From Candidatus Omnitrophota bacterium (GTDB lineage: Bacteria; Omnitrophota; Gorgyraeia; Gygaellales; Profunditerraquicolaceae): DNA of 64,000 nt. The notes beneath the pieces are model-generated. The model made no database searches and was not told the DNA's origin. It saw only the letters and a program-made list of their open reading frames with translations. The DNA is taken from the NCBI GenBank assembly GCA_028712255.1, contig JAQTQJ010000005.1:20950-84949 (forward strand), written 5' to 3'. The stretch's first letter is position 1. Each line of letters opens with the position of its first letter. Made by a program: the position numbers and the translations under genes. This document shows, one piece after another, positions 18,001 through 64,000 of this stretch.

Positions 18001-21000
18001 GTTTCCGCAATTAAAACAGTCATTTTCCAATATTGCTAAAGATAGTTCGCAGCCCATTGAGATTCGTAAAGCTGCAGTTTTAAGTTTAGGTAATCTAAAA
18101 GATTGGTATTATTTTGTATCTCTAGCTTCAGATCCTGATTGGCAAATACGGGAAATTGTAGCGACTTCTTTTGGCTATTTTGACCAGTTTCAAGCTTTAT
18201 CGTATCTTAGACCGTTATTAAAAGATGATTCTGCAAAAGTTAGATTAGCGGCAGTGAATTCTCTTAGTCATTTCGACGATCCTCAGGTCTCTGAGATTTT
18301 AATCTCGATATTAGAGGATCATGACTTGCAAGTCCGAGAATCTGCGCTTAATATATTAGTTGATAAGAAGCCTCTGGAATTAAAACAGGTGTTCTTGGAT
18401 GTTGGTAGGGATATCTCTCAACCTGCTGAGGTTAGGCAAGATACGCTTCTATATTTATGCAATATAGATTTCTTAAAACGCAATATTTCATCGCCCAATA
18501 GAGCTCAGTATGTTGGTGGTTATAATTTTTTAATTAGTTCAGAAAAACTTCAAAGGGTAGCCTTATTGTTAGGTAATCTGAAAGGTATAATGATTCTTGA
18601 TTTACTTAAGCCTTTAACTAAGGATCTTAATGGGCCGGTGCGGGGAGCCGCTGCTACTTCACTTGGTAATTTTGACCAACCGGAAACCATAGATTATCTT
18701 AAGCCGCTTTTAAATGATTATGAGTGGCCAGTGAGAGTGGCAGCAATGCGTTCTTTAATTAAATTTAATGATCCTCGAGTTGCTGAATTATTAATTCCCC
18801 TGTTAACTCGCCCTGTTTTAGTAGAACCAATAGGTTATAATCCGTGGGTCCGAGAATATACGATTAGCGCCTTGGCTGACAATATAAATCGACCTGAAGT
18901 AAGGGAGATTTTTTTAGGTTTATTAAAATCTTCGTTTAGGGAGGAAGACGCGATTCTGTCAATAATTTCCCAGGCAAATTTAAAGACAATTGAGTCCGTA
19001 GAACCATTTTTGTCTGATCCTAATCCAAGTGTTCGGCGAATTGCAGTATTAGTTTTAGCTTCAAGGTTAGATGATTTTCCTGAAACATTAACTTTCCTTA
19101 TTCCACTTTTTAATGATAATGATTCACAGGTTCGCTCTACCGCTGTTTCAGCCTTAGCTCCGTATATAGGTAAATTTTCGCAATTAAAGCAGCCATTTTT
19201 CAATATTGTTAAAGATGTTTCTCAGCCTATCGAGGCACGCCAGAACGCATTATTTTATTTATCGAAGCTCGATGTCCCGGAAGTAAAAGCTTTGTTAGTT
19301 AGTAATTTAAATAATACTGACTGGAAAATGCGCCAGGCTGCAGTATTAGGTTTAGGTAATCTCAAGGATTCTGAAATTCCCGATTTACTTAAGCCTTTAA
19401 TTCGGGACCCTTACGAGAATGTCAGGCAAGCCGTTGTAACCTCTCTTGGTAATTTTAATCAACCCCAGGTAATTAGTTATCTTAAACTGTTTCTAAATGA
19501 TGATTCTTCGAATGTGCGTAAAAGTGCGATATTATCTATAGGTTCAAGGTTGGATGATTTTCCTGAAAATGTAACTCTTCTTACTCCACTTTTTAATAAT
19601 AAAGATTCACAGGTTCGCTCTGCTGCTGTCTTAGCTTTAGGCCCATACCTAGATAAGTTTCCGCAATTAAAGCAGCCATTTCTGGATATTACTAAAGATG
19701 TTTCGCAACCTATCGAGGCACGCCAGAATGCATTATTTTATTTGTCGAAGCTCGATGTTCCGGAAGTAAAGGCTTTATTAACTAGTAATTTAACTAGCAC
19801 TGATTGGAAAATGCGCCAGGTTGCAGTATCAGGTTTAGGTAATTTTCGAGGCCCCGAAATCTCTGGCCTACTTCAACCTTTAACCTTAGATCCTATTTCG
19901 GCTGTACGTGTGAGTGTTGCATTATCTTTGGGCCAATTAGATGAACCCCAGGCAGCGCAATCATTAGCATTTTTATTAAAAGATAATGATGTTTCTGTTC
20001 GTCAAGCCGCGTTGACATCTTTAGGTCTAAAGTTAGATCTTTTTCCTAAGAATTTAGATCTTTTGATACCGTTTTTAACTGACCCAAATTTACAGATTCG
20101 CTCTACTGCCGTTTCAGTCTTAGGACCAAGTATAGATAAATTCCCACAATTAAAACAACCATTCCTAGATATTGCTAAGGGTCTTTCTATGCCTATTGAT
20201 ATGCGTCAAAATGCGATGTTTTCTTTATCTAAGCTTGATACTCCTGAAGTAAAAGCTCTGCTAACTAGTAATTTAGCTAATACTGATTGGAGAATGCGTC
20301 AGGTTGCAGTATTGGGCTTGGGTAATTTTAAAGGTCCTGAAATCCTAGATCTGCTTAAACCTTTAACCCTTGATCCTGCCTGGCAGGTCAGACAAGCTAC
20401 TGCAACTTCTTTTGGTAACTTCAACCAACCTCAAACTATAGATTACCTTAAGCCGCTTTTAAGTGATAGTTATTGGCAAGTACGGTCGGCTACTACGGCC
20501 TCTCTTGGTAATTTTAATAATCCTCAAGTTCTAGATTCTCTTATCCCTAGACTAAATGATCCTGCTTGGCAGGTACGCGAGAGTACGGCAGTGTCTTTGG
20601 GTCAATTCGATGAATCCAAGATGGTGGAATCATTAATGCCTTTATTAAAAGATAATAATGTTTTTGTGCGGCAAGCCGCTGTATTATCCTTAGGAGATAA
20701 AGTTAGATTGTACCCGCAGTTGTCAGGAGAATTTGTCAATATTTTAAAAACAGACAACGATCTTTGGATTAAACAAATCTCTGCTTTTTCTCTGCAAAGT
20801 ATAAATACGCCGAAGGTAGAGGAAGTAAAACCATTAATTAAACAAGCCACTTCAGAAATAAGAGTTGTCGTTATTATATCTGGAATTGATGATTGGTTAG
20901 GATTTTTTCCCTTGACGGGTCGTAAAACAGGTGAGACTGGATTGAAAAATTGGTCTTTAGTTAATATACTAAAAGCGGGTGGTTTACAGGTGGTTGAACA

Positions 21001-26484: not shown

Positions 26485-27783
26485 ATGTTGTTTAAGAACG
26501 TATTTTTGGGTATTTTTGTATTGTTTTCAGTCTTAGGTTGTTCAGGCCAAAAAACAGATTCAAAACCTGCCATTAGTATCTGGCATTGGATGACTGACCG
26601 CGATGCGGCTTTCCAGGAATTAGCAAAAAAATATGAAACTTTAACAGGCATAAGGGTAAATTTTGAACTTTATGCTCCTTCAGATGCTTATTCGCAGAAG
26701 ATCCGTGCCGCTGCCCAAGGTATAAACCTTCCGGATGTCTTTGGTATTTTAGGAGAAAAGAGGGATTTTGCCTCTTTCATTAAAGCCGGACATATCTTAG
26801 ATCTTACTTTTTATATGGATGCAAACAATAATATTTGGAAGAATAATTTCTTTCCCAAGGCTTTGGCGGTAAATGAATTTACCGCAGGTAACAGTTACGG
26901 AATAAATCCCGGCATATACGGCGCGCCCATAGATATTATGACCATTCAGATGGTCTATAATAAAAAACTTTTTTCACAATTAGGCCTGAATCCTAATCGG
27001 CCGCCGAAGACTCTGCAAGAGTTTTTGGATATTGGCCCTAAGATTCAGGCTGCCGGAATGCAGGGGTTGGTTTCCGGATGGGGAGAGGTTTGGATGATTG
27101 ATTGTTTGGCCAATGATTTCGCCTTTAATATTATGGGTAAAGATAAGGTATTGGCTACGATAAGAGGGGAAGTTTCTTACACTGACCCGGATTGGATCAA
27201 GGTATTTTCTATTTTTAAGCAGATGCAGGGCTCAGGTGTTTTGGCTAAGGGCTTGGTGACGATGATTAATAAATCTGCTGAGCAGCTTTTTGCCAATGAA
27301 AAAGCAGTGTTTGCTTTTAACGGTTCATGGTGTGTAAACGTTTACAAAGGAATGAATCCTAGCCTTGAGTACGGAGCAATGCTTCCGCCACAGGTATCCG
27401 ATAAGTATCCGGTTTCTATATGGGGAGGAGCAGGCTCTTCTTTTATGGTAAACGCCCGTTCTAAAAACAAAGAAGAAGCAGTTAAGTTTTTAATCTGGTT
27501 GACCGATCAGGAGCAACAGGCATATTTATCTAAAGTTACCAATAATCTGCCTGCTAACAAAAATTGTTTAGCTAAGATTCCCGAGGTTTTGGCCCAGTTT
27601 GCCCGCGGCATGGATTATGCCACTCATCCGAATATCTGGGGGGTTTCAGAGTTTTCTCTTGTGATTGAAGCTTTTGATCGAGGAATCCAATCGATTATTA
27701 TCGGTGAAAAAACTCCCGAACAGGTTGCCAGCGAAGTGCAGCAGATTAAGGAAAGGGAATTAGATAAGAGGAAGGCCCGTTAG
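26485..27783 (+). CDS. ABC transporter substrate-binding lipoprotein (carbohydrate-type SBP, family 1).
   Basis: Lipobox VLGCSG after a signal peptide. SBP_bac_1-like sequence. RBS aaggagat. Confidence 0.85.
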   Translation: MLFKNVFLGIFVLFSVLGCSGQKTDSKPAISIWHWMTDRDAAFQELAKKYETLTGIRVNFELYAPSDAYSQKIRAAAQGINLPDVFGILGEKRDFASFIKAGHILDLTFYMDANNNIWKNNFFPKALAVNEFTAGNSYGINPGIYGAPIDIMTIQMVYNKKLFSQLGLNPNRPPKTLQEFLDIGPKIQAAGMQGLVSGWGEVWMIDCLANDFAFNIMGKDKVLATIRGEVSYTDPDWIKVFSIFKQMQGSGVLAKGLVTMINKSAEQLFANEKAVFAFNGSWCVNVYKGMNPSLEYGAMLPPQVSDKYPVSIWGGAGSSFMVNARSKNKEEAVKFLIWLTDQEQQAYLSKVTNNLPANKNCLAKIPEVLAQFARGMDYATHPNIWGVSEFSLVIEAFDRGIQSIIIGEKTPEQVASEVQQIKERELDKRKAR

Positions 27784-27858
27784 TCATTGCGAGGAGCGAT
27801 AGCGACGAAGCAATCTAAACCGGGATTGCTTCGGGCACTTCGTGCCCTCGCAATGACA
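27783..27858 (+). repeat. Composite palindromic element, family II copy 1. Structure: GTCATTGCGAGG...CGAAGCAATC..GATTGCTTCG..CCTCGCAATGAC.
   Basis: Nested inverted repeats. Sits between the SBP stop and the permease gene. Confidence 0.8.
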
Positions 27859-27877
27859 CATAATAACGATTAACCAG

Positions 27878-29764: not shown

Positions 29765-29899
29765 TGTCATTGCGAGCCCGTTATATTAGTCATTACGAGG
29801 AGCGAAGCGACGAAGCAATCTCTAAAAATGGGATTGCTTCGGGCACTTCGTGCCCTCGCAATGACGGAGTTGGTTTTATTCGGCTCCTCGCAATGACAA
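29765..29899 (+). repeat. Family II palindromic element, copy 2. Extended or double unit with four CATTGCGAG/CTCGCAATG half-sites.
   Basis: Same core as copy 1. Overlaps the 5' end of ORF 29737 and supplies the ATG at 29893. Confidence 0.8.
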
Positions 29900-32188: not shown

Positions 32189-32263
32189 GTGTCATTGCGA
32201 GGAGCCGAAGGCGACGAAGCAATCCAAATCGAGATTGCTTCGCCCTGCGGGCTCGCAATGACG
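32189..32263 (+). repeat. Family II palindromic element, copy 3.
   Basis: gtgtcattgcgaggagccgaaggcgacgaagcaatcc...gattgcttcgccctgcgggctcgcaatgac. Confidence 0.8.
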
Positions 32264-33455: not shown

Positions 33456-33535
33456 GTGTCATTGCGAAGAGCCAAGCGACGAAGCAATCTTTTATTAGAT
33501 TGCTTCGTCCGCCTTCGGCGGACTCGCAATGACAC
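33456..33535 (+). repeat. Family II palindromic element, copy 4.
   Basis: gtgtcattgcgaagagccaagcgacgaagcaatc...gattgcttcgtccgccttcggcggactcgcaatgacac. Confidence 0.8.
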
Positions 33536-33554: not shown

Positions 33555-34787
33555 GTGAAAAAATATTATTTTCTCGTCTTTGCGCTAATTTTTACGGTTA
33601 TCACCAGTATTTCCTGCGCCCCTTCTCCCAAGGTTTTTATTAAACAACTCAAAAACCAGCATTATCAACTTATCGTTAACGGTCGCCCGTATGTTGTCAA
33701 AGGGGTTTGTTATAACCCAATCCCGATAGGCCAGAATCATGAATATGATTGGTGGAGTGATCCGAATAAGCCCTGGATTGTTGACGGGAAACTTATGAAG
33801 GATATGGGGGTTAATACTATTCGTCTTTATCAAGCGCATGATAATCCTGAGGAGGTAAAACAAGTAATTCGAGACCTGTATAATTTGTATGGAATCCGTA
33901 CTCTTTTAGGTGATTGGTTGGGCTTCTGGGAGTATCCCTGCCCTTTTTATGGTGACAAAAAATTTCAGGATAAGGTAAAGGCCCAGGTATTGGAGATGGT
34001 TAATCTCTATAAAGATGAACCCGGAATTTTAGGCTGGATTTTGGGAAATGAGAATAATTATTCCTGCCTTGGACATGTAAATCCCTGGTCAAGCCCAGAG
34101 GTTGATCAAGAACCTGATCCACAGAAACAAAAATTGATGCGTGCAAAAATTTATTATTCTTTTGTAAATGATTTATCTAAGGAAATACATAAGGTTGACC
34201 TAAAGCATCCTGTAGGATTGGGTAATGGCGAATTAGTAGGTTTAGATTCTGCCAATAAATTTTGTCAGGATGTTGATTTTGTAGCCTGTATAATTTACCG
34301 TGGTAAAACCTTCGGCAACCTTTTTAATTCCCTCAAAGCAACATTTGATAAGCCGATGCTGTTAGCAGAATTTGGCGCGGATTGTTATGATGCTTATCTT
34401 AAGAAGGAAGATCAAAATATGCAGGCGTTTTTCTTGCAATCACAGTGGGAGCAGATTTACAAAAACTTAGCCAATAAAAAAGAAGGCGTAGGTAATTGTA
34501 TAGGCGGAACAATTTTTGAATGGGTGGATGAATGGTGGAAATATGCTTCTGATAATCCGCAAGGATGGAAAGTTCATAATACCGAGAGCGGTTGGTCTAA
34601 TGGAAGCTATTATTTTGATATCCGCGCACAAAATAATATGAATATGAATGAAGAATGGTTTGGTATTGTTGCATTAGGAGAGCAGTTGGAAAACGGTTTA
34701 AATAAGCGCATACCGCGTAAGGCTTATTATGTAATTAGGGAGTTTTGGAAGAATCCGGTAGTTAAAAAAACGCGTAAGAAGAAATAA
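33555..34787 (+). CDS. Clan GH-A glycoside hydrolase paralog. Start tentatively GTG 33555, because the ORF 5' part lies in a repeat element.
   Basis: NTIRLYQ, ILGNENNY, LLAEFGADCY, FEWVDEWWKY. Lipoprotein-like N-terminus ...ITSISCAP. Confidence 0.6.
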   Translation: MKKYYFLVFALIFTVITSISCAPSPKVFIKQLKNQHYQLIVNGRPYVVKGVCYNPIPIGQNHEYDWWSDPNKPWIVDGKLMKDMGVNTIRLYQAHDNPEEVKQVIRDLYNLYGIRTLLGDWLGFWEYPCPFYGDKKFQDKVKAQVLEMVNLYKDEPGILGWILGNENNYSCLGHVNPWSSPEVDQEPDPQKQKLMRAKIYYSFVNDLSKEIHKVDLKHPVGLGNGELVGLDSANKFCQDVDFVACIIYRGKTFGNLFNSLKATFDKPMLLAEFGADCYDAYLKKEDQNMQAFFLQSQWEQIYKNLANKKEGVGNCIGGTIFEWVDEWWKYASDNPQGWKVHNTESGWSNGSYYFDIRAQNNMNMNEEWFGIVALGEQLENGLNKRIPRKAYYVIREFWKNPVVKKTRKKK

Positions 34788-34791
34788 AACA

Positions 34792-34838
34792 AAGGGGACG
34801 GTTCTCTTAAAAAAGAGAACCGTCCCCTTTATTTTTAA
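34792..34838 (+). terminator. Terminator / REP-like hairpin aggggacggttctc-ttaaaaaa-gagaaccgtcccct + TTATTTTT.
   Basis: 14-bp perfect stem followed by a T-tract. Confidence 0.7.
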
Positions 34839-42663: not shown

Positions 42664-44577
42664 ATGAAAAATTTTGATGTAATCGTTATCGGTGCCGGCC
42701 ATGCCGGTATTGAAGCAAGCCTGGCGTGCGCCCGTATGGGCGCTAGAACCCTTATGCTTACTCTGGATATTAATTCTATCGGAAGGATGAGTTGCAATCC
42801 GGCTATCGGTGGAGTAGGTAAGGGCCAGTTGGTAAAAGAGATTGATGCTTTAGGCGGACAAATAGGTATTGCTACCGATGCCTGCGCAATTCAATTTCGT
42901 ATTCTTAATTCTTCCAAAGGCCAAGCTGTTCAGTCATCGCGGGCCCAGATTGATATGCACAGATATAGCCGTTATATGCGTGGAATAGTTTTACATCAGA
43001 AGAATTTAACGGTAAAAGAAGCGCAGGTAAGAAAATTAATTGTAGAAGATGGCAGAGTTTTGGGGGTAATTACGGATAATGAAAAGATTCGTTCTAAAAG
43101 TGTAGTTATATGCCCGGGAACATTCCTAGATGGTGTAATTCATATAGGATTAAAACATTTTAGTGCCGGGCGTATCAATGAGCGTGCTTCTATAGGCCTG
43201 GCGGATAATTTAAAAAGCCTAGGTTTTAACCTATTACGTTTTAAAACCGGAACCTGCCCGCGCCTGGATAAGCGTACAATTGAATTCTCTAATCTGATAA
43301 TCCAAGAAGGTGATTTAATCCCTAAGCCTTTTTCATTCTCAACCAAACAAATAAAACAAAAACAAGTTCCTTGCCACATCACTTATACCAATAAGAGTAC
43401 TCATGAGATAATTCGCGCTAACCTTGATCGCTCGCCGCTTTATGCAGGGATAATTAAAGCTACAGGCGTTAGGTATTGCCCTTCAATTGAAGACAAGATT
43501 GTTAAATTTGCAGGCAAAGAACGCCACCAGGTATTTCTGGAACCTGAAGGTTTAGGGGTTAATGAAATTTATCCTAATGGCATATCTACCAGTTTGCCTG
43601 AAGATGCGCAGCTTAAACTTTTGCATTCTATTTCGGGCTTAGAGAAAACAAAGGTTATCCGTTTTGGTTATGGTATTGAACATACCGTAGTTGACCCCAC
43701 GCAGCTTTTCCCAACTCTGGAGACAAAGCTAATTAAAAATCTTTATTTGGCTGGCCAAATTAACGGCACAACCGGTTATGAAGAAGCAGCCGCGCAGGGA
43801 TTGGTTGCCGGAATTAATGCGGCTTTACGTTTAAAAAATAAGGAACCTCTAATTTTGGACCGCGCAAGCAGTTATATCGGCGTATTAATTGATGATTTAA
43901 CTACTAGGGGGACTCTTGAGCCATACCGGATGTTTACCTCAAGAGTAGAATATCGTCTGGTTATCCGTGAAGATAATGCGGATTTGCGCCTGGGAAAAGT
44001 AGGTTTTGAGTTGGGGTTGGTGAAAAAAAATGTTTATCGTAAAATAAAAAAGAAAGCGGATGGCATTAAAGAAGGGATGGAATTTTTAAGAAAAACGCGG
44101 ATTAATTGTCCTGTTGGCCATTCTGAGCCCGCCGCTTTAGGCGGCGAGGCGAAGAATCTAAGATTGGTAACCCTAGAAAAATTATTGAAGCGGCCGCAAA
44201 TAACGATCAAAGATTTAAAGAAGATGCATAAATTAAAAACAGGTATACCCGAATCTGCTTGGCAACAGATTCAAATCGAGGTAAAATATGCTGGATTTAT
44301 CCAGAGGCAACTTAAAGATGTAGAACGGTTTGAGCATCTAGAAAAAATTAAATTGCCGCAAGATTTTGATTATAGCAGTTTGTCTGGAATATCCCTGGAG
44401 ATAAGAGAAAAACTGGCTAAATTTAAACCGCTTAACTTGGGGCAGGCGTCGCGTATTTCAGGAGTAACCCCGGCAGCCGTATCTCTTTTGATGGTTTATT
44501 TGCGAAAATGTAACAGCTTTCGGAATTCAGCGACGAGTGTCATTGCGAGCGACCGAAGGGAGCGAAGCAATCTTTAA
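42664..44577 (+). CDS. mnmG: tRNA uridine 5-carboxymethylaminomethyl modification enzyme MnmG (GidA). The last roughly 20 codons read into a repeat element.
   Basis: MKNFDVIVIGAGHAGIEA FAD motif. GidA-family sequence throughout. Confidence 0.9.
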   Translation: MKNFDVIVIGAGHAGIEASLACARMGARTLMLTLDINSIGRMSCNPAIGGVGKGQLVKEIDALGGQIGIATDACAIQFRILNSSKGQAVQSSRAQIDMHRYSRYMRGIVLHQKNLTVKEAQVRKLIVEDGRVLGVITDNEKIRSKSVVICPGTFLDGVIHIGLKHFSAGRINERASIGLADNLKSLGFNLLRFKTGTCPRLDKRTIEFSNLIIQEGDLIPKPFSFSTKQIKQKQVPCHITYTNKSTHEIIRANLDRSPLYAGIIKATGVRYCPSIEDKIVKFAGKERHQVFLEPEGLGVNEIYPNGISTSLPEDAQLKLLHSISGLEKTKVIRFGYGIEHTVVDPTQLFPTLETKLIKNLYLAGQINGTTGYEEAAAQGLVAGINAALRLKNKEPLILDRASSYIGVLIDDLTTRGTLEPYRMFTSRVEYRLVIREDNADLRLGKVGFELGLVKKNVYRKIKKKADGIKEGMEFLRKTRINCPVGHSEPAALGGEAKNLRLVTLEKLLKRPQITIKDLKKMHKLKTGIPESAWQQIQIEVKYAGFIQRQLKDVERFEHLEKIKLPQDFDYSSLSGISLEIREKLAKFKPLNLGQASRISGVTPAAVSLLMVYLRKCNSFRNSATSVIASDRRERSNL

Positions 44578-44613
44578 AGATTGCTTCGTCGCTGTCGCTC
44601 CTCGCAATGACAC
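44537..44613 (+). repeat. Family II palindromic element, copy 5, at the mnmG 3' end.
   Basis: gtgtcattgcgagcgaccgaagggagcgaagcaatc...gattgcttcgtcgctgtcgctcctcgcaatgacac. Confidence 0.8.
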
Positions 44614-44651
44614 GATTAATTTCGAAATTTTGATTGTTATAAGAAAAGGCA

Positions 44652-45359: not shown

Positions 45360-45439
45360 GTGTCATTGCGAGTCCGCCGAAGGCGGACGAAGCAATCTAA
45401 TAAAAGATTGCTTCGTCGCTATCGCTCCTCGCAATGACA
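45360..45439 (+). repeat. Family II palindromic element, copy 6. A degenerate short relative gtcattcccgctttcgcgggaataac lies at 52398-52426.
   Basis: gtgtcattgcgagtccgccgaaggcggacgaagcaatc...gattgcttcgtcgctatcgctcctcgcaatgacac. Confidence 0.8.
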
Positions 45440-45475
45440 CAGATAATTCCAAGGGCTGAGCTGAACAATTAAAAA

Positions 45476-54435: not shown

Positions 54436-54500
54436 AAGCTGTCAGCTGTAAGCGGTAAGTTTTAAGCTTACAGCTTATAACTTAAAGCTTATGGCTTAGT
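54436..54500 (+). repeat. Family III palindromic element (GTAAGCGG.AAGTTTTAAGCTTACAGCTTATAACTTAAA core).
   Basis: Related copies at 60886-60952 and 62910-62976. Nested inverted repeats ctgtaagc/gcttacag. Confidence 0.65.
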
Positions 54501-54518
54501 TTTTAGGGCCTATAAAAA

Positions 54519-56360: not shown

Positions 56361-57083
56361 ATGGTGGTGAAAAAGAAGGAAAATTATGAAATATACGTAA
56401 AACAGATCGAGGCTATTTCAAAAGTGGCGAATTTGCTTACCTCGGGAATGTATTTGGAGGAAATTTTACGTTTAGTGGTGCAGGTTACCGCTGAAATTAT
56501 GAATTCTAAAATTTCTTCTTTAATGCTGCTTGACCCGGAGAAAAAAGAGCTGGTGGTTAAAGCTACCCAATCAATATCCGAGGCATATAATAAGAAGCCG
56601 AATATCCGTTTAGGCCAGGGGATAGCCGGCGCGGTGGCACAGGAGAACAAGCCGATGTGTATCTTGGATATTAAGACCGATGCGCGCTACCTGAACCAGG
56701 ATATTGCTAGAAAAGAGGGTCTTTGTTCTTTAGCCTGCGTTCCGCTGGCAGTCAAGGGAAGAGTTATTGGAGTGCTTAATTGTTATACTTCTAAAAAGCA
56801 TAAATTTTCCAAGCATGAATTGGATCTTCTGACGGCTTTGGCTAATCAGGCAGCCATTGCTATTGAAAACGCAGAGCTTGATTTACGCGCGCGCTCCGCA
56901 GAGGAGGCTCTTACCATCCGTAAATTAGTCGAACGGGCAAAGGATATTCTGTCTCAGGAAGCTAATATTTTGCCTTCAGAGGCTTATCGGCTGATTCAAA
57001 AGCAAAGCATGGATATGCGTAAATCCATGCGTGAAGTGGCAGAAGCCATAATTCTAGCTAAAGATATTAGAGGTAAGAGGTAG
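56361..57083 (+). CDS. GAF-ANTAR regulator (RNA-binding antitermination regulator with a GAF sensor domain).
   Basis: C-terminal ANTAR signature IRKLVERAKDILSQEANILPSEAYRLIQKQSMDMRKSMREVAEAII. N-terminal GAF-like domain. Confidence 0.75.
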   Translation: MVVKKKENYEIYVKQIEAISKVANLLTSGMYLEEILRLVVQVTAEIMNSKISSLMLLDPEKKELVVKATQSISEAYNKKPNIRLGQGIAGAVAQENKPMCILDIKTDARYLNQDIARKEGLCSLACVPLAVKGRVIGVLNCYTSKKHKFSKHELDLLTALANQAAIAIENAELDLRARSAEEALTIRKLVERAKDILSQEANILPSEAYRLIQKQSMDMRKSMREVAEAIILAKDIRGKR

Positions 57084-57114: not shown

Positions 57115-57762
57115 ATGGAATTTTTCCCAAAGTTAATCGATGTATTACTTCATTTTAATACCTACCTTAGTGTTTTAATCCAGCAGTGCGGTTTGTGGAC
57201 ATATCTTATACTTTTTGGGGTTATTTTTGCGGAGACCGGATTTGTGGTAACGCCGTTTCTGCCCGGGGATTCGCTTCTTTTTGTGTTAGGCGCTTTTTCC
57301 GCCCAAGGAACATTTAATCCTTTTGTTTTGTCCGGAATTCTCATGTTTGCGGCGATTTTAGGCGATAGTGTCAATTATGCTATCGGGAAATATTTAGGAA
57401 ATCGGCTGATTTCCGCTAGACACATCCCTTTTTTTAAGAAAGAACATTTGGACCGGACCCACCATTTCTATAAAAAGTATGGCGGCAAAACAATTATTTT
57501 AGCCAGGTTTATACCTATAGTAAGGATGTTTGCTCCGTTTATCGCAGGTATCGTGCGTATGGATTATGCCAAATTCTTTATCTATAATGTAATAGGGGGC
57601 ATATTATGGGTAGCAATCTTTGTGTTTGGAGGTTTTTATTTCGGAAATATTCCTATTGTGAAAGAAAATTTTTCTGTAGTTACGCTACTAATTATTAGTA
57701 TCTCGATAATACCGGTTATAGTTGAATTTATTAAAGCGAGAAGAAAAAAGAATTTACCTTGA
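57115..57762 (+). CDS. DedA/SNARE-associated family membrane protein.
   Basis: PGDSLLF and ARFIPIVRMFAPFIAGIV motifs. Confidence 0.8.
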   Translation: MEFFPKLIDVLLHFNTYLSVLIQQCGLWTYLILFGVIFAETGFVVTPFLPGDSLLFVLGAFSAQGTFNPFVLSGILMFAAILGDSVNYAIGKYLGNRLISARHIPFFKKEHLDRTHHFYKKYGGKTIILARFIPIVRMFAPFIAGIVRMDYAKFFIYNVIGGILWVAIFVFGGFYFGNIPIVKENFSVVTLLIISISIIPVIVEFIKARRKKNLP

Positions 57763-57997
57763 CAGTAGTAAAAGGTATGGTATGCTTTAATTAGATTACA
57801 GCGTTGTAGTAAAAGACACAGAAGTCTTCTAGGCGGTTAGGTTTGCTTAGGAGGCTTTTTGTTGGTCAGGACTAAGGCGTCCTTACCCGATAAAAGGGTG
57901 AGGACGTTTTTTATTGTACGGGAGATTAGTATATCTAGTAGGGACTGTCCCACGACAAGTTAAGTATAATTTGCTGCTAACGAAAAAAGGAATAGCA

Positions 57998-58519
57998 ATG
58001 AGTTTTGAGGAGCTGTATCATAAATTATCGCCAACAATTAAGCGGATTGCCTATAAGTTAAACGGACGCTACCGTTCCTTTAACCATGATGATCTGTACC
58101 AAGAGGCTTCAATCCACCTTTGGAGTAATTTCTTAAAAGGGAAACTTAACGATAAAACTGATAGCTATATTTTACAGGGGTGTTATTTTCACTTGAGGAA
58201 CCATATTCGAAAAGTAAATGAGTATTCCAATATTATTAGTATTGATACTCACCTGAGCACGAATGAGAAATCAACCATAGAGGATATTTTGGGTAAATTT
58301 TGGTCTTGTCCTGATTGCCGGGAAGATTTACACAATAAGTTTCTGGCGCAAAATATCCAAAATAACGGTTTTAGCCCAAGAGAGAAAAAGCTGCTTGCTT
58401 ATTTTAGCCAGGGCTTAACTACCAGGGATATAGGTAATCGTATGGGGATATCTCATGTTAGCGTAGTTAAGATGATGCAAAAAGTTAGAGCTAAGGCAAA
58501 AAAACATTTAGATAGATAA
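57998..58519 (+). CDS. Sigma-70 family (ECF-like) sigma factor. Start moved to ATG 57998, which has an aagga RBS.
   Basis: Region-2-like DLYQEASIHLW. Region-4 HTH LTTRDIGNRMGISHVSVVKMMQKVRAKAKK. Confidence 0.6.
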   Translation: MSFEELYHKLSPTIKRIAYKLNGRYRSFNHDDLYQEASIHLWSNFLKGKLNDKTDSYILQGCYFHLRNHIRKVNEYSNIISIDTHLSTNEKSTIEDILGKFWSCPDCREDLHNKFLAQNIQNNGFSPREKKLLAYFSQGLTTRDIGNRMGISHVSVVKMMQKVRAKAKKHLDR

Positions 58520-58588
58520 TATCCTTCGTCTCTAGATAAAAACTTATTGTAGACTCAGGATAAATTTTGCTTGGCAAAATTTAATTTG

Positions 58589-58618
58589 GTTACCAGATTT
58601 AGTTATTCTTTACTTGTA
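58589..58618 (+). promoter_or_regulatory. Promoter-like motif GTTACC-N16-TACTTGTA, upstream of the OM-protein/amt/glnB unit.
   Basis: The same bipartite motif with identical spacing recurs at 61394-61423 and 63403-63432. Confidence 0.5.
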
Positions 58619-58656
58619 GTAATGTAAAACACATTGAAGTGTAAGATTTAAACAAC

Positions 58657-58686
58657 GGCGTTCTATGAAAATAGAGCGCCTTTTTT
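58657..58686 (+). terminator. Leader intrinsic-terminator-like hairpin (ggcgttctat gaaa atagagcgcc + TTTTTT) between the promoter motif and the OM-protein gene.
   Basis: 10-bp stem followed by a T6 tract. Further hairpin/T-tract structures at about 58697-58716 and 58770-58800. Confidence 0.45.
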
Positions 58687-58841
58687 GTTTTAACCAGACG
58701 CAGGCGTCTTTTGCCCAACAAGGGCACACCCGCGCAATTCCTTATAAGCGCGGGGTGTTACTGAGAGGGGTTTAGAAAGGCGCTTTTTGTTTTTAAAAGC
58801 AATTTAAGCGCAACACGGGCATAATAATAAAAAGGAGAAAA

Positions 58842-59642
58842 ATGCGAAAATTATCAATGATTTTGTTTTTTCTGTTTTCTGTCCTCTGTTTTCTGTTCTC
58901 TGTATGTTATGCAACACCTTCAACGCTTATTTGGGCTCCTTCAACCGATATTCAACCTTATGGTTTGATCCATTTAACCGTAGATAACTACACGCCGGTT
59001 AAGAGCAGGGATCATAATGATAATCAGCTTTATGTTCAACAAGTTTATGGACCAACTTTTAGTTTGTTATCCAATAAGCCGGAAGATAACTTTTTAGGTA
59101 AATTTTGGTCGCCTTTAGGTAAAATAATGGCAGAGACTGGTTTTGATTACAAAAAGGGTTTTGGCTCCATACTGGACAAGTGGCCGGTATATTTTCATTT
59201 TAAATTCGGCGTACCTGAAAGCGCCTATTTTAACTATATGCCTGCATTTGCAATCGGTGTATATGATATGGGTTATAAGCATAATTTTACCAATAACAAT
59301 GTTTGGTACTTGAGGGCAGCAAAAACTGCTTCTATAGGTAAGTTTAATTTAGGTAGGTTCTCTGTCGGTTATTTTAACGGTAATGGCAGGACTTTGCGGG
59401 ATAAAAATGGAGAGCGTGATAATTCCGGGCCGATGATTGCTTGGGAACGCACGATTTCAGAGATAAGTGACAGGCTTTGGTTATGTGTGGATTATCAGGG
59501 AACGCAGTCATCTTACGGCGCGCTTAATTACGGATTTGCCTGGAAGTTTACGAATAATATCGTAGCGATACTTGCATATGATGTTTATAATAATCCGAAT
59601 TCAAAAAATACCGTAACGTTTCAGTTAGATGTTGATTTTTAA
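58842..59642 (+). CDS. Putative outer-membrane/secreted protein encoded upstream of amt.
   Basis: Signal peptide MRKLSMILFFLFSVLCFLFSVCYA. Aromatic-rich beta-strand-like pattern. C-terminal DVDF. Confidence 0.4.
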   Translation: MRKLSMILFFLFSVLCFLFSVCYATPSTLIWAPSTDIQPYGLIHLTVDNYTPVKSRDHNDNQLYVQQVYGPTFSLLSNKPEDNFLGKFWSPLGKIMAETGFDYKKGFGSILDKWPVYFHFKFGVPESAYFNYMPAFAIGVYDMGYKHNFTNNNVWYLRAAKTASIGKFNLGRFSVGYFNGNGRTLRDKNGERDNSGPMIAWERTISEISDRLWLCVDYQGTQSSYGALNYGFAWKFTNNIVAILAYDVYNNPNSKNTVTFQLDVDF

Positions 59643-59657
59643 CATAGGAGGAGCCAA

Positions 59658-60884
59658 ATGAATTCAGGTGATACAGCATGGGTTTTAATTTCATCAGCCC
59701 TTGTTTTACTGATGACTCCCGGCCTTGCTTTTTTCTACGGAGGCATGGTGCGGCGCAAAAATGTTTTAAGTGTTTTGATGCAATGTTTTATTATCATGTG
59801 TGTTTTAAGCCTTCAGTGGGTTTTGGTTGGTTATAGCCTATCTTTTCATCCGGGAAATGGATTTTGGGGAGGTTTACAATGGATGGGTTTAAATGGAGTA
59901 GGTTTAGAGCCTTACGCGGACTACGCAGGGTCAATACCACATCAAGCGTTTATGGTCTTTCAAGGGATGTTTGCCATAATTACACCGGCTTTGATTATTG
60001 GCGCGTTTGCCGAAAGGATGAAATTTTCCGCGTTTTTGATTTTTACTTTGCTTTGGGCAACGTTTGTTTATGATCCTTTATGCCACTGGGTTTGGGGAAT
60101 GGGTGGTTGGTTAAGAAATTTAGGCGCTTTGGATTTTGCCGGAGGTACGGTTGTGCATATCAATGCCGGTATTGCAGCTTTGGTTACGGCAATCGTATTA
60201 GGTAAAAGAAGTAACCTGGATAAAAATGTTCCTACGCCGCATAACATGCCTTTTGTGGTTTTAGGCACAGTGCTTTTGTGGTTTGGTTGGTTTGGTTTTA
60301 ATGCCGGCAGTGCGTTAGCGGCAAACGGCTTAGCGGTAAATGCGTTTGTGGTAACTAATACCGCAGCAGCGGCTGCGGGTTTAGCTTGGGCTTTGATCGA
60401 ATGGATGCATAATGGAAAGCCTACCATTTTTGGTGTCTGTTCTGGTGCAGTCGCAGGCTTAGTCGCGATTACTCCTGCAGCAGGTTTTGTGGGTGTAATT
60501 GGAGCTATAGTTATTGGTTTATTGGTGAGTGTAGTTTGTTTTATTGCCGTGACTGTAATCAAGCCGCTTTTTGGTTATGATGATTCTTTGGATGCATTTG
60601 GCGTACACTGTGTAGGAGGAATCTGGGGGGCGTTAGCTACAGGATTATTTGCTTCTAAGCTGATTAATCCTGCTGGAGCCAATGGGTTATTTTTTGGTAA
60701 TCCTAAACAATTCCTGACACAGGCTTTAGCTGTAGGTGTAACCATTGTTTATACAGGAGTTGTAACCTTTATTATTTATAAATTAGTGGATATTTTTATT
60801 GGGGTTAGGGTTGATGAGAAGTCAGAAGCTATAGGTCTTGACCTTACCCAGCATCGTGAGAGGGCATATACGATACTTGAATGA
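59658..60884 (+). CDS. amt: Ammonium transporter, copy 1.
   Basis: DFAGGTVVHINAGIAALV Amt signature. 11 TM helices. Confidence 0.9.
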   Translation: MNSGDTAWVLISSALVLLMTPGLAFFYGGMVRRKNVLSVLMQCFIIMCVLSLQWVLVGYSLSFHPGNGFWGGLQWMGLNGVGLEPYADYAGSIPHQAFMVFQGMFAIITPALIIGAFAERMKFSAFLIFTLLWATFVYDPLCHWVWGMGGWLRNLGALDFAGGTVVHINAGIAALVTAIVLGKRSNLDKNVPTPHNMPFVVLGTVLLWFGWFGFNAGSALAANGLAVNAFVVTNTAAAAAGLAWALIEWMHNGKPTIFGVCSGAVAGLVAITPAAGFVGVIGAIVIGLLVSVVCFIAVTVIKPLFGYDDSLDAFGVHCVGGIWGALATGLFASKLINPAGANGLFFGNPKQFLTQALAVGVTIVYTGVVTFIIYKLVDIFIGVRVDEKSEAIGLDLTQHRERAYTILE

Positions 60885-60885
60885 A

Positions 60886-60952
60886 AGCTCTAAGCCATAA
60901 GCCGTAAGCGGCAAGTTTTAAGCTTACAGCTTATAACTTAAAACTTAGAGCT
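60886..60952 (+). repeat. Family III palindromic element between amt1 and glnB1. An exact second copy lies at 62910-62976.
   Basis: agctctaagccataagccgtaagcggcaagttttaagcttacagcttataacttaaaacttagagct. The outer agctctaag/cttagagct and inner gtaagc/gcttac arms are inverted repeats. Confidence 0.65.
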
Positions 60953-60974
60953 AGAGTTTACAAAGGAGGATAAT

Positions 60975-61316
60975 ATGAAACTAGTGATTGCTATAATTCA
61001 ACCGTATAAGCTAGAAGAAGTAAAGGAGGAGCTGTATAAGGTAGAAGTAAACCTGATTACCGTAAGCGAAGTTTTAGGCCATGGCCGCCAGAAAGGTATC
61101 ACTGAAGTCTACCGCGGTTCTAAAGAAACCGGGAATCTCCTGCGAAAAATCCGCCTTGAGATTGCCGTAAACGATAATTATCTTGAACCGACAATCAAGG
61201 CAATTGTTAAAGGCGCCAAAACCGGTGAAACCGGAGATGGAAAAATATTTGTCCTCGATCTTAAAGAATGCATCCGTATCCGCACTGAAGAACGCGGGGC
61301 AGTGGCGATAGGGTAG
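60975..61316 (+). CDS. glnB: P-II nitrogen regulatory protein, copy 1.
   Basis: GHGRQKG and TGETGDGKIFV P-II motifs. T-loop YRGS. Confidence 0.9.
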   Translation: MKLVIAIIQPYKLEEVKEELYKVEVNLITVSEVLGHGRQKGITEVYRGSKETGNLLRKIRLEIAVNDNYLEPTIKAIVKGAKTGETGDGKIFVLDLKECIRIRTEERGAVAIG

Positions 61317-61393
61317 GAATTAGAGATCCTTCGTCTGTAGATAAAAGCTTATTGTGGACTCAGGATAAATTTTGCTTCGCAAAATTTAATTTA

Positions 61394-61423
61394 AGTTACC
61401 AAAACAGGTAGTTGTTTACTTGT
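61394..61423 (+). promoter_or_regulatory. Promoter-like motif GTTACC-N16-TACTTGTA, upstream of amt copy 2.
   Basis: See 58589-58618. Confidence 0.5.
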
Positions 61424-61481
61424 ACTATTATAGATTAATATAAGCACACAGTAGTGTTTATATTGAAGAAGCGCAATGTAA

Positions 61482-61525
61482 GCGCCAATACGGTTTATAA
61501 AATAACCGTAAAGGCGCTTTTTTTT
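61482..61525 (+). terminator. Leader terminator-like nested hairpin (gcgcc...acggtt/aaccgt...ggcgc + T8) upstream of amt copy 2.
   Basis: GC stem followed by TTTTTTTT. Confidence 0.45.
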
Positions 61526-61681
61526 CGCCAGAAATCGTGGCGAATCCGCCATGTATTATGGCGGAATTTACTTACCCTATTTTTACGCAATTGGTTATCC
61601 AGTTGAGCAAATTAATCGAAACAGTTTCCAGCCCAATCGGGAAATGGGGTTTAAGAGAAGAAACTATTTATGGGAGGTGAG

Positions 61682-62908
61682 ATGATTAATCAAGCGGATA
61701 CGTTGTTTGTTCTGATGTCGGCGGCGTTTGTAATGCTGATGACTCCCGGCCTTGCTTTTTTCTACGGAGGCATGGTCAGGCGCAAGAATATTTTAAGCGT
61801 TTTAATGCAATGTTTTGTTGCTTTATGTCTGTTGTCTTTACAATGGATAATTTTTGGTTATAGCCTATCTTTTGCTCCAGGAAATGGGTTTTGGGGAGGC
61901 CTTAGTTGGTTTGGTTTAAACGGAGTGGGGGCAGCTCCTTATGCGGGTTATTCTGTGACTATTCCGCATCAGGCATTTATGGTTTTTCAGATGATGTTTG
62001 CTGTTATAACTCCAGCGCTTATTATTGGTGCTTTTGCCGAAAGGATGAAGTTTTCGGCTTTCTTAGTTTTCACCCTACTTTGGGCAACCTTTGTTTATGA
62101 TCCTTTGTGTCACTGGATTTGGGGAGTAGGAGGTTGGCTTAGAAACCTTGGCGTGCTTGATTTTGCCGGAGGTATTGTTGTGCATACTAGCGCCGGAATT
62201 GCAGCTTTAGTTTCTACTATTATCATTGGTAAAAGAAAGAACTTGGAGCATACACCGTCTCCACATAACCTCCCTTTTGTAGTTTTAGGAACTGCGCTTT
62301 TATGGTTTGGCTGGTATGGTTTTAATGCCGGCAGCGCTTTGGCGGTAAATGGAATTGCAGTAAGCGCTTTTATTGCTACTAATACTGCTGCAGCCGCAGC
62401 CGGTTTAAGCTGGGCGTTCTTGGAGTGGATACGTAATGGCAAACCTACGGTTTTTGGTATTGTAACCGGTTCGATTGCTGGGCTTGCCACTGTTACTCCT
62501 GCTTCGGGATTTGTAAGCCCGATTTCAGCAATTATTATCGGTATTGCTGCCAGTATAATTTGTTTTATCGCGGTTGCAGTAACTAAACCGCGGTTTGGTT
62601 ATGATGATTCTTTGGATGCCTTCGGCGTGCATGGCGTAGGAGGAATACTGGGTACGCTTTTAACCGGGGTATTGGCTTCTAAAGCAATAAATCCGGCAGG
62701 AGCGGACGGTTTATTATATGGTAATCCTAAGCAGTTACTTATACAATTATTGGCGGTTACGGTTGCAGTAAGCTATACTTTTATTGCTACTTTTATTATT
62801 TATAAGCTCGTAGATATTTTCTTTAGGATGCGTGTAAGTGAGAAAGATGAGCTGGTCGGTCTTGACCTTACCCAGCATCGTGAGAGGGCATATACGATAC
62901 TTGAATGA
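61682..62908 (+). CDS. amt: Ammonium transporter, copy 2. Start set at ATG 61682, which has a ggaggtgag RBS.
   Basis: About 80% identical to copy 1. DFAGGIVVHTSAGIAALV. Confidence 0.9.
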   Translation: MINQADTLFVLMSAAFVMLMTPGLAFFYGGMVRRKNILSVLMQCFVALCLLSLQWIIFGYSLSFAPGNGFWGGLSWFGLNGVGAAPYAGYSVTIPHQAFMVFQMMFAVITPALIIGAFAERMKFSAFLVFTLLWATFVYDPLCHWIWGVGGWLRNLGVLDFAGGIVVHTSAGIAALVSTIIIGKRKNLEHTPSPHNLPFVVLGTALLWFGWYGFNAGSALAVNGIAVSAFIATNTAAAAAGLSWAFLEWIRNGKPTVFGIVTGSIAGLATVTPASGFVSPISAIIIGIAASIICFIAVAVTKPRFGYDDSLDAFGVHGVGGILGTLLTGVLASKAINPAGADGLLYGNPKQLLIQLLAVTVAVSYTFIATFIIYKLVDIFFRMRVSEKDELVGLDLTQHRERAYTILE

Positions 62909-62998
62909 AAGCTCTAAGCCATAAGCCGTAAGCGGCAAGTTTTAAGCTTACAGCTTATAACTTAAAACTTAGAGCTAGAGTTTACAAAGGAGGATAAT

Positions 62999-63340
62999 AT
63001 GAAACTAGTGATTGCTATAATTCAACCGTATAAGCTAGAAGAAGTAAAGGAGGAGCTGTATAAGGTAGAAGTAAACCTGATTACCGTAAGCGAAGTTTTA
63101 GGCCATGGCCGCCAGAAAGGTATCACTGAAGTCTACCGCGGTTCTAAAGAAACCGGGAATCTCCTGCGAAAAATCCGCCTTGAGATTGCCGTAAACGATA
63201 ATTATCTTGAACCGACAATCAAGGCAATTGTTAAAGGCGCCAAAACCGGTGAAACCGGAGATGGAAAAATATTTGTCCTCGATCTTAAAGAATGCATCCG
63301 TATCCGCACTGAAGAACGCGGGGCAGTGGCGATAGGGTAG
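62999..63340 (+). CDS. glnB: P-II nitrogen regulatory protein, copy 2. Identical nucleotide sequence to copy 1.
   Basis: Exact duplicate of 60975-61316. Confidence 0.9.
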   Translation: MKLVIAIIQPYKLEEVKEELYKVEVNLITVSEVLGHGRQKGITEVYRGSKETGNLLRKIRLEIAVNDNYLEPTIKAIVKGAKTGETGDGKIFVLDLKECIRIRTEERGAVAIG

Positions 63341-63345
63341 GAAAA

Positions 63346-63391
63346 CCAGGTGACGGTTCTCTTTCTTAAGAGAACCGTCACCTGGTTTTTA
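63346..63391 (+). terminator. Rho-independent terminator / REP-like hairpin ccaggtgacggttctc-tttcttaa-gagaaccgtcacctgg + TTTTT.
   Basis: Perfect 16-bp stem followed by a T-tract. Member of the GGGGACGGTTC hairpin family. Confidence 0.7.
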
Positions 63392-63402
63392 AGAAGATTG
63401 AA

Positions 63403-63432
63403 GTTACCAGAAATGATTCTTTTTTACTTGTA
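63403..63432 (+). promoter_or_regulatory. Promoter-like motif GTTACC-N16-TACTTGTA, upstream of glnN.
   Basis: See 58589-58618. Followed by hairpin agaggc...gcctct + T-rich at 63443-63485. Confidence 0.5.
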
Positions 63433-63537
63433 ATTAGAGAACAGAGGCGTTCTGGTGTATTAGAGAATGCCTCTTTTAATTTTTGCTGATTGTGGTAAGA
63501 TAAATCCAATATTCTTTTAATGTGCAAGGGGGGGAAA

Positions 63538-64000
63538 ATGAGCATAAGACAGAAGGTTTTATTTAAAATTAAGAGCACTGACTTGGAAAAAATTGATTCT
63601 CCGAAAAAGGTTTCTTCTTATTTTGGAGAAAATACTTTTAACACCGAAACTATGCAGAAGCATATCTCTAAGCCTACCTTTGAAGCTTTTAAGCTTTGGA
63701 TGTCTGAGGGCAAGACCATTACCATGGAACAGGCGAATGAGATTGCCGGTGCCATGAAAGACTGGGCGATGGCCAAAGGCGCCACATATTATACGCATTG
63801 GTTTCAGCCGATGACCGGCCTGACTGCAGAGAAGCACGATAGTTTCATCTCTATTACTGCTCCGGGAAAAGTAATTGAAAAATTTTCAGGCAATAAATTA
63901 ATCCAGGGTGAGCCGGATGCCTCAAGTTTTCCCTCAGGAGGAATTCGCGCGACTTTTGAAGCCAGAGGTTATACTGCCTGGGATCCTTCAAGCCCGGCAT
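63538..64000 (+). CDS. glnN: Glutamine synthetase type III, N-terminal fragment. Runs off the 3' window edge.
   Basis: Hand-translated as MSIRQK...[18 protein letters not shown]...[31 protein letters not shown], matching GSIII N-terminal motifs. Confidence 0.8.

Follow-up and report, generated by a model that had tools for sequence, protein, structure and literature searches.

We analysed a stretch of 64,000 nucleotides (nt) from a Candidatus Omnitrophota bacterium (GCA_028712255.1, contig JAQTQJ010000005.1, positions 20,950 to 84,949 of the forward strand; called the window here and numbered from its first letter), which carries two tandem units, each made of an ammonium transporter gene (amt) and a gene for a P-II protein (glnK). 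The 3' parts of the two units are identical, and a recent gene conversion in which unit 1 overwrote unit 2 is very probably the best explanation of this identity. A first-pass annotation of the same DNA had proposed a very recent conversion inside an old, diverged tandem, and this is supported by the 15 related genomes that bear the same tandem, in which the Amt proteins group by position, the glnK genes group by genome, and the converted tracts are mosaic. The P-II genes, called glnB in that annotation, are better named glnK because they are linked to amt.

The maximal exact block comprises positions 60834-61319 and 62858-63343, with a length of 486 bp and an offset of 2024. The identity of 60834-61316 with 62858-63340 noted in the first-pass annotation holds base for base, but the length given there, 483 bp up to the glnB stop, is slightly short, as the block runs 3 nt beyond that stop. 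The nearest mismatch on the left is an A at 60833 against a C at 62857. Both copies begin with GGTCTTGACCTTACCCAGC at codon 393 of amt1, a gene of 408 codons, and the amt share of the block amounts to 16 sense codons and the stop, in agreement with the earlier placement of the start within the last 17 codons. It is the sole long exact direct repeat of the window, with 447 of the 449 repeated 40-mers showing the offset of 2024. In a sliding alignment of unit 1 against unit 2, the amt bodies match at 34-55 of every 60 nt, without a gradient, the block at 60/60 throughout, and the downstream DNA at 19-36/60. The amt bodies are clearly diverged in DNA (about 70-72% identity), as had been stated, and their products share 74% of residues (301/408) rather than the ~80% estimated earlier. 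At codons for identical residues, synonymous differences are found in 127/286 positions of the amt bodies versus 0/113 in glnK (Fisher p = 9e-24), and the non-coding 90-nt spacer between amt and glnK is also the same in both copies. The synonymous contrast and the identical spacer together exclude chance identity.

Both edges of the block coincide with features of the units themselves. On the left, the block opens with the codon that begins GLDLTQHRERAYTILE, where the universally conserved C-terminal motif of Amt, GLDLTQH, starts. This tail aligns with VGLDLSQHEEVAYTL in Archaeoglobus fulgidus Amt-1 and with EGLDVNSHGENAYN in Escherichia coli AmtB, and both Amt clades described below retain it. 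Just upstream, the window and the relatives alike preserve the clade signatures GVRVDEKSEAI (first transporter, a1) and RMRVSEKDELV (second transporter, a2). As the two tails probably differed very little even before the event, the actual left end of the tract may fall at any point inside the tail; exact matches of 29-80 nt in the amt tail are seen between the two copies of the relatives. On the right, the block ends where the units cease to be homologous, with the promoter and leader region of amt2 lying 3' of glnK1, and a perfect 22-bp hairpin followed by the leader of the type III glutamine synthetase gene (GSIII) lying 3' of glnK2. Separately, amt1 and amt2 share an exact 41-nt match near codon 18 (59709-59749 and 61736-61776), within the conserved motif LMTPGLAFFYGGMVR; relatives, too, have isolated exact patches of this kind in their amt bodies (41-77 nt), possibly old micro-conversions.

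A scan of species-representative genomes with Amt1 gave 80 Omnitrophota loci with a matching neighbourhood, and a metagenome scan with Amt2 gave three close loci (L081-L083), including two further tandem loci. Neither scan found a genome of the same species, the closest relatives being 94-95% identical in Amt1. An exact-sequence look-up did not find the GlnK protein of the window in the protein collection, which therefore holds no independent assembly of the same strain; the nearest database GlnK proteins, at 88-94% identity, are from metagenome-assembled genomes (MAGs) of Candidatus Omnitrophota. The order amt1-glnK-amt2-glnK-GSIII was found in L002, L004 (partial), L005, L006, L009, L011, L013, L036, L039, L041, L043, L061, L073, L078, L081, and L082. 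In a protein tree of 49 Amt sequences, the two clades a1 and a2 follow the position in the tandem with a bootstrap of 100/100. Because the clades follow position, the amt-glnK duplication is, on the evidence of this tree, ancient and predates the divergence of all the compared genomes. The first-pass annotation had contemplated relatives with either one or two copies of the P-II gene, and both states are found: besides the 15 genomes with the tandem, L001, L003, and L007 have one unit. These single-unit genomes are nested among tandem-bearing ones, which suggests repeated loss of unit 2 in their lineages.

The glnK genes have a different history from the transporters. In the glnK DNA tree, copies from the same genome are sisters in 10 of the 15 tandem loci (bootstrap 133-200 of 200): in 200/200 replicates for the window, L036, L039, and L073, in 198 for L013, 186 for L078 and for L061, 159 for L041, and 133 for L005. 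Close genome pairs form four-sequence glnK clades (L009/L011, 200; L006/L082, 199), the pairing is weak in L002 (75/200) and is not seen in L081 (21/200), and monophyly of all the first glnK copies is recovered in 0/200 replicates. We also compared the synonymous-difference fraction, the share of identical-residue codons with a synonymous change. Within genomes, the amt bodies show 0.39-0.53 in all cases, and glnK shows 0.00 in the window, 0.04 in L039, 0.20-0.30 in L073, L036, L013, L011, L006, and L009 (each p<0.003), and 0.42-0.52, like amt, in L002, L005, L078, L041, and L061. Between genomes, the fractions for orthologues are 0.58 for glnK and 0.55 for amt, and glnK is thus under no special codon constraint.

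The differences that remain between the glnK copies of the relatives are unevenly placed. In L011, codons 1-48 are identical and 36 differences follow; in L013, 37 differences lie in codons 1-50 and none in codons 51-108; in L039, 10 of the 12 differences lie in codons 107-111; and L078 contains an exact 89-nt block beginning in the spacer. The last 48 nt of amt share the pattern, with a mean identity of 85% within genomes versus 75-77% between genomes. The comparisons thus show three things: the exact identity in the window, the age of the tandem, and a recurrent, mosaic homogenisation of glnK and the amt tail in the relatives. Taken together, they make gene conversion of glnK and the amt tail recurrent in this lineage, and of all the compared genomes the window has the youngest clean tract and the longest.

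We infer the following course of events. In an ancient tandem of an ammonium transporter/P-II operon, the 3' part of unit 2, running from the conserved Amt C-terminal tail across the spacer to the end of glnK, would have been replaced by non-reciprocal homologous recombination. The left anchor of the strand exchange would be the DNA coding for the GLDLTQHRERAYTILE tail, which both paralogues kept and which is already near-identical in relatives, and the right anchor the 3' part of glnK. The tract would have halted leftward because the amt bodies are merely ~70% identical, and rightward because what follows glnK1 bears no relation to what follows glnK2. The spacer of unit 1, non-homologous and with its palindromic element, would have been carried over as a passenger. 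As a result, both transporters would be served by an identical GlnK, each unit retaining its own promoter, leader, and transporter body.

Several features point to unit 1 as the donor. The diagnostic GlnK residues of the window (S49, K50, and I100) are of the first-copy type (g1) among the closest relatives, in which the second copies (g2) carry A49 (L002, L013, L081, and L006), R50 (L013, L081, and L006), and V100 (L002, L081, and L005). In all eight of the eight tandem loci with an Amt2 at least 82% identical to that of the window, the window GlnK has a higher protein identity to copy 1 than to copy 2. The spacer motif AGAGTTTACAAAGGAGG, next to the ribosome-binding site, occurs elsewhere in spacer 1 of L002 only, and in L007 with one indel. 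Spacer 2 of the closest relatives differs from that of the window and is shorter (9-68 nt; 9 nt in L002). Some points tell against this interpretation: the direction is drawn from three amino-acid positions and one 17-nt motif, the state of zero differences is that of the assembled sequence only, the pre-conversion state had to be read from other species because a same-species genome was not found, and the same end product could arise by unequal crossing-over and deletion.

The conversion would not require selection: only in glnK and the tail do the units resemble each other closely enough to recombine, and conversion preserves this resemblance. The neutrality of the event is inferred. It is conceivable, although we doubt it, that the homogenisation is selective and goes beyond this homology limit, placing two diverging ammonium channels under one shared GlnK pool. 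Under such selection, GlnK and the transporter C-terminal tail alone would have been kept alike since before the sampled genomes diverged, and the bodies, promoters, and leaders would have diverged.

The first-pass annotation had named an assembly artefact as the alternative. A spurious duplication of the whole unit is unlikely because orthologues of amt2 stand at the same place in the relatives, but the identity itself might still be assembler-made, with real copies that are near-identical or mosaic as in the relatives; we regard this as rather unlikely. It could have arisen by bubble popping or polishing, or by a de Bruijn path that passed twice through the unit-1 branch, changing over at a short exact anchor on each side, in which case the true unit-2 branch would be left as a discarded short contig. 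Anchors of the needed kind exist in relatives (amt tail, 29-80 nt; 3' half of glnK, 20-174 nt), and the contig ends of related MAGs cluster downstream of amt1, where 19 of the 41 ends within 7 kb fall in the first 1 kb, including five at glnK nt 100-153, compared with 0-4 per 500-nt bin farther on (L001-L080). The anchors and this pile-up therefore mark the locus as difficult to assemble. Yet the usual result in relatives is a contig break and not a false duplicate, the two-unit order recurs in the 15 relatives, and two independent assemblies of one species, L006 and L082, have the same structure and agree with each other at 100% in their glnK copies. Even an assembler-made identity needs long exact segments shared by the true copies, and conversion would underlie it anyway. 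The clustering of contig ends suggests, in its own right, that near-identical glnK copies or variation in unit number break short-read assemblies.

Unequal crossing-over between the tails or the glnK copies, giving a transient triplication and then a deletion, is a very unlikely source of the block. The units are direct repeats 2 kb apart, and the nested single-unit genomes L001, L003, and L007 suggest that recombination between repeats also deletes units; nevertheless, this route takes two events with precisely placed endpoints against one conversion, and the short internal mosaic tracts of the relatives are typical of conversion and not of crossing-over. There is virtually no chance that the identity was kept by selection (purifying selection with codon bias, for which the high conservation of GlnK, 88-97% in amino acids across the relatives, might speak) or came from a fresh duplication of the whole unit, both being refuted by the identical non-coding spacer, by the freedom of glnK synonymous sites to diverge between genomes (0.58), and by the Amt clades, in which amt2 groups as an orthologue with the second transporters of other genomes, not as a new copy of amt1.

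The imperfect palindrome in the spacer had been put forward as a possible mediator of the event, and comparison with the relatives does not support this. The element sits within the tract, 52 nt in from the left edge; its core occurs three times in the window and in 0 of 160 related loci, and conversion tracts occur in relatives without it. The two spacers of L039 carry unrelated palindromes, yet on either side of them the amt tail (51/51) and glnK (96.5%) have been homogenised. On these three observations we reject palindrome-mediated recombination as unsupported, and the sharp edges are explained more simply by the start of the conserved Amt motif on the left and the end of homology on the right. 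The third copy of the element is located at 54436-54510, in an unrelated intergenic region, with an exact 27-nt core at 54457, and a repeat search shows 14-nt register shifts in the family. The RNA of the spacer element folds with -28.2 kcal/mol (z = -2.6) and leaves the ribosome-binding site of glnK free. On the simplest reading, the element is a passenger, of which the conversion would have made the second local copy. Among close relatives, the amt-glnK spacers are hypervariable; 42 of the 56 spacers of at least 50 nt fold into strongly stable, unrelated hairpins, and many consist, by eye, of ~7-nt periodic units. These hairpins may be genome-specific elements resembling repetitive extragenic palindromes (REP) at a permissive or selected intercistronic site.

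The locus in the window runs from a sigma-like gene through p266, amt1-glnK1, and amt2-glnK2 to GSIII, with the amt and P-II genes (PF00909 and PF00543) adjacent and co-oriented in each pair, an arrangement conserved in the 80 loci. Upstream, Pfam identifies genes for a GAF-ANTAR protein (56361-57083), a VTT/DedA protein (57115-57762), and a sigma-70/ECF-type protein (57914-58519, also TIGR02937), which are followed by p266 (58842-59642), encoding a 266-residue protein without a family assignment. The amt1 gene (59658-60884, plus strand) encodes a transporter of 408 amino acids (PF00909, E=1.9e-132; TIGR00836 above cut-off) that sits in the a1 clade, with orthologues in L001-L003 of 94-95% amino acid identity, and its stretch 60834-60884 belongs to the block. 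The first repeat copy (60834-61319, plus strand), the putative donor, is composed of this tail, the 90-nt spacer, glnK1, and the 3 nt after its stop. Its spacer holds the imperfect palindromic element (60886-60952, strand not assigned), an inverted repeat of ~7-nt periodic units. The glnK1 gene (60975-61316, plus strand) encodes a P-II protein of 113 amino acids (PF00543, E=2.4e-26), which among solved structures is closest to GlnK1 and P-II chains, with the GlnK chains from the AmtB-GlnK complexes 2nuu and 2ns1 among them.

Unit 2 begins outside the converted tract with a promoter-like box, GTTACC-N16-TTTACTTGTA (61395-61424, within 61326-61525, plus strand), and a leader with a terminator-like hairpin and T-run (hairpin 61480-61519, plus strand, fold z = -7.4), both kept at the same position in L002, L004, L006, L081, and L082. 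The amt2 gene (61670-62908, plus strand; PF00909, E=3.1e-129) encodes 412 amino acids from the ATG at 61670, with an alternative ATG at 61682 after GGAGG, and its last 16 codons and stop (62858-62908) lie in the block. Its product falls in the a2 clade (100/100) and has orthologues of 92-93% identity in L002, L013, L006, L081, and L082. The second repeat copy (62858-63343, plus strand), the putative recipient, contains the amt2 tail, the spacer with the second element (62910-62976), glnK2 (62999-63340, plus strand), the second P-II gene, and the 3 nt after its stop. Directly after the block stands a terminator-like hairpin (63342-63395, plus strand), a perfect 22-bp inverted repeat (100% complementary) with a T-run, and the N-terminus of GSIII (Pfam) is encoded from 63538. 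The hairpin family GGGGACGGTTCTC...GAGAACCGTCCCC is terminator-like at 34785-34835 and 63342-63391 of the window, and also occurs inside amt-glnK spacers of L001 and L012. Rfam returned nothing over threshold and chance hairpin matches only (at the gathering threshold for the whole window and in E-value mode for 58400-63600), the tRNA scan found none, and a scan for sigma-70 promoter and terminator consensus sequences gave matches no commoner than in shuffles.

The unit-2 box belongs to a wider set, with one box for each nitrogen transcription unit. We found the box GTTACC-N15-18-T[AT]CTTGTA at 58589-58618, 61395-61424, and 63403-63432, before p266-amt1, amt2, and GSIII, respectively, and 122 matches were found in 83 related sequences (~1 Mb), every one on the gene strand and upstream of p266, amt1, amt2, GSIII, or other genes. 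The GAF-ANTAR gene and the ECF-type sigma gene are syntenic with the locus, and the box may be the promoter recognised by this sigma factor. The leaders after the boxes (58619-58690, 61425-61525, and 63433-63485) each contain a terminator-like hairpin and T-run; such a structure lies within 170 nt of the box in 96 of the 122 cases, compared with 23 of 122 control segments. Two short hairpins with an A1/G4 hexaloop precede the terminator in 53 of the 122 leaders versus 3.4 ± 1.7 in shuffled leaders, and the second of them overlaps the terminator in leaders of the p266/amt1 type. We take these leaders to resemble the targets of antitermination by ANTAR proteins. Directly upstream of the box lies a 67-nt non-coding segment (ATCCTTCGTCTGTAGATAAAAGCTTATTGTGGACTCAGGATAAATTTTGCTTCGCAAAATTTAATTT), at 58521-58587 and 61326-61392 in the window and at L006 8629-8706, L082 4755-4832, L001 5976-6041, and L013 3846-3898 in relatives. 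It is 94% identical between the window copies and ~99% identical to L006 and L082, as against ~77-82% for the coding DNA of the same genomes.

Elsewhere in the window, a giant open reading frame (59-21796, 7245 amino acids) contains internal tandem repeats near 19054-20319 with a 483-nt period and 73-85% identity. A dispersed repeat family with GTCATTGCGAGG...CGAAGCAATC occurs at 27783-27860, 29806-29865, 32189-32242, 33475-33535, 44537-44621, and 45360-45448, and its 61-nt pair 33475-33535 and 45360-45420 is 100% complementary.

Concerted evolution of P-II genes has been described before. Wang & Chen 2018 (Commun Biol, PMC6053082) counted glnB (P-II), in Methanococcales, as one of 26 prokaryotic genes that show long-lasting recurrent concerted evolution, and noted that homo-oligomeric proteins tolerate homogenisation; since P-II forms homo-oligomers, homogenisation leaves the stoichiometry intact (PMC6053082). 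The Methanococcales and Omnitrophota cases share the P-II family and a closer resemblance of paralogues in one genome than of orthologues in different genomes, which is attributed to recurrent gene conversion. In contrast, the Omnitrophota case is bacterial and concerns an amt-linked tandem in which the diverged transporters show the age of the duplication directly, and its tracts are partial and mosaic and extend into the 3' tail of the transporter. The tufA/tufB genes of Salmonella and E. coli are likewise kept alike by non-reciprocal conversion of duplicates, with tracts that extend until homology runs out (Paulsson et al. 2017, PMC5485169). However, the two tuf genes lie far apart and are homogenised over their whole length, whereas the amt-glnK units are direct repeats 2 kb apart, of which ~1/4 of each is homogenised, and unlike in tuf, the amt-glnK conversion carried a non-homologous 90-nt spacer.

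Compared with E. coli AmtB-GlnK (2nuu and 2ns1), the window has the same adjacent, co-oriented genes and the Amt motif GLD..H.E.AY, but two tandem pairs are present and the locus continues into a type III glutamine synthetase. In AmtB-GlnK pairs a T-loop arginine plugs the channel, and in the alignment of the window T-loop to GlnK chains the arginine of YRG is present. Position 51 (E. coli numbering) is Glu in the window GlnK, which we take to replace the uridylylated Tyr51 of enterobacterial GlnK. Intercistronic palindromes of the REP or bacterial interspersed mosaic element (BIME) type are found, for example, between malE and malF in E. coli. The element of the window is similarly an imperfect palindrome present at several intergenic sites and between two cistrons of an operon, but it has no sequence relationship to them, is genome-specific, has a heptamer periodicity, and was, on our reading, copied by conversion and not by its own mobility. 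Within the library that was searched, no paper joined concerted evolution and glnK, and those on gene conversion together with glnK and amtB concern other subjects only, judged from titles and abstracts. Concerted evolution of P-II is thus already published for Methanococcales; the tandem, amt-linked case in Omnitrophota is new, and it is no new kind of system.

The locus offers a clean natural example of bacterial gene conversion, in which the unconverted, linked transporters date the duplication and the relatives provide a series of tracts of varied age and endpoints. At this nitrogen locus, short-read assemblies are probably broken by the near-identity of the glnK copies. Conversion can also spread a palindromic repeat that is specific to one genome and travels as a passenger, and glnK/P-II trees in this clade do not follow the history of the paralogues.

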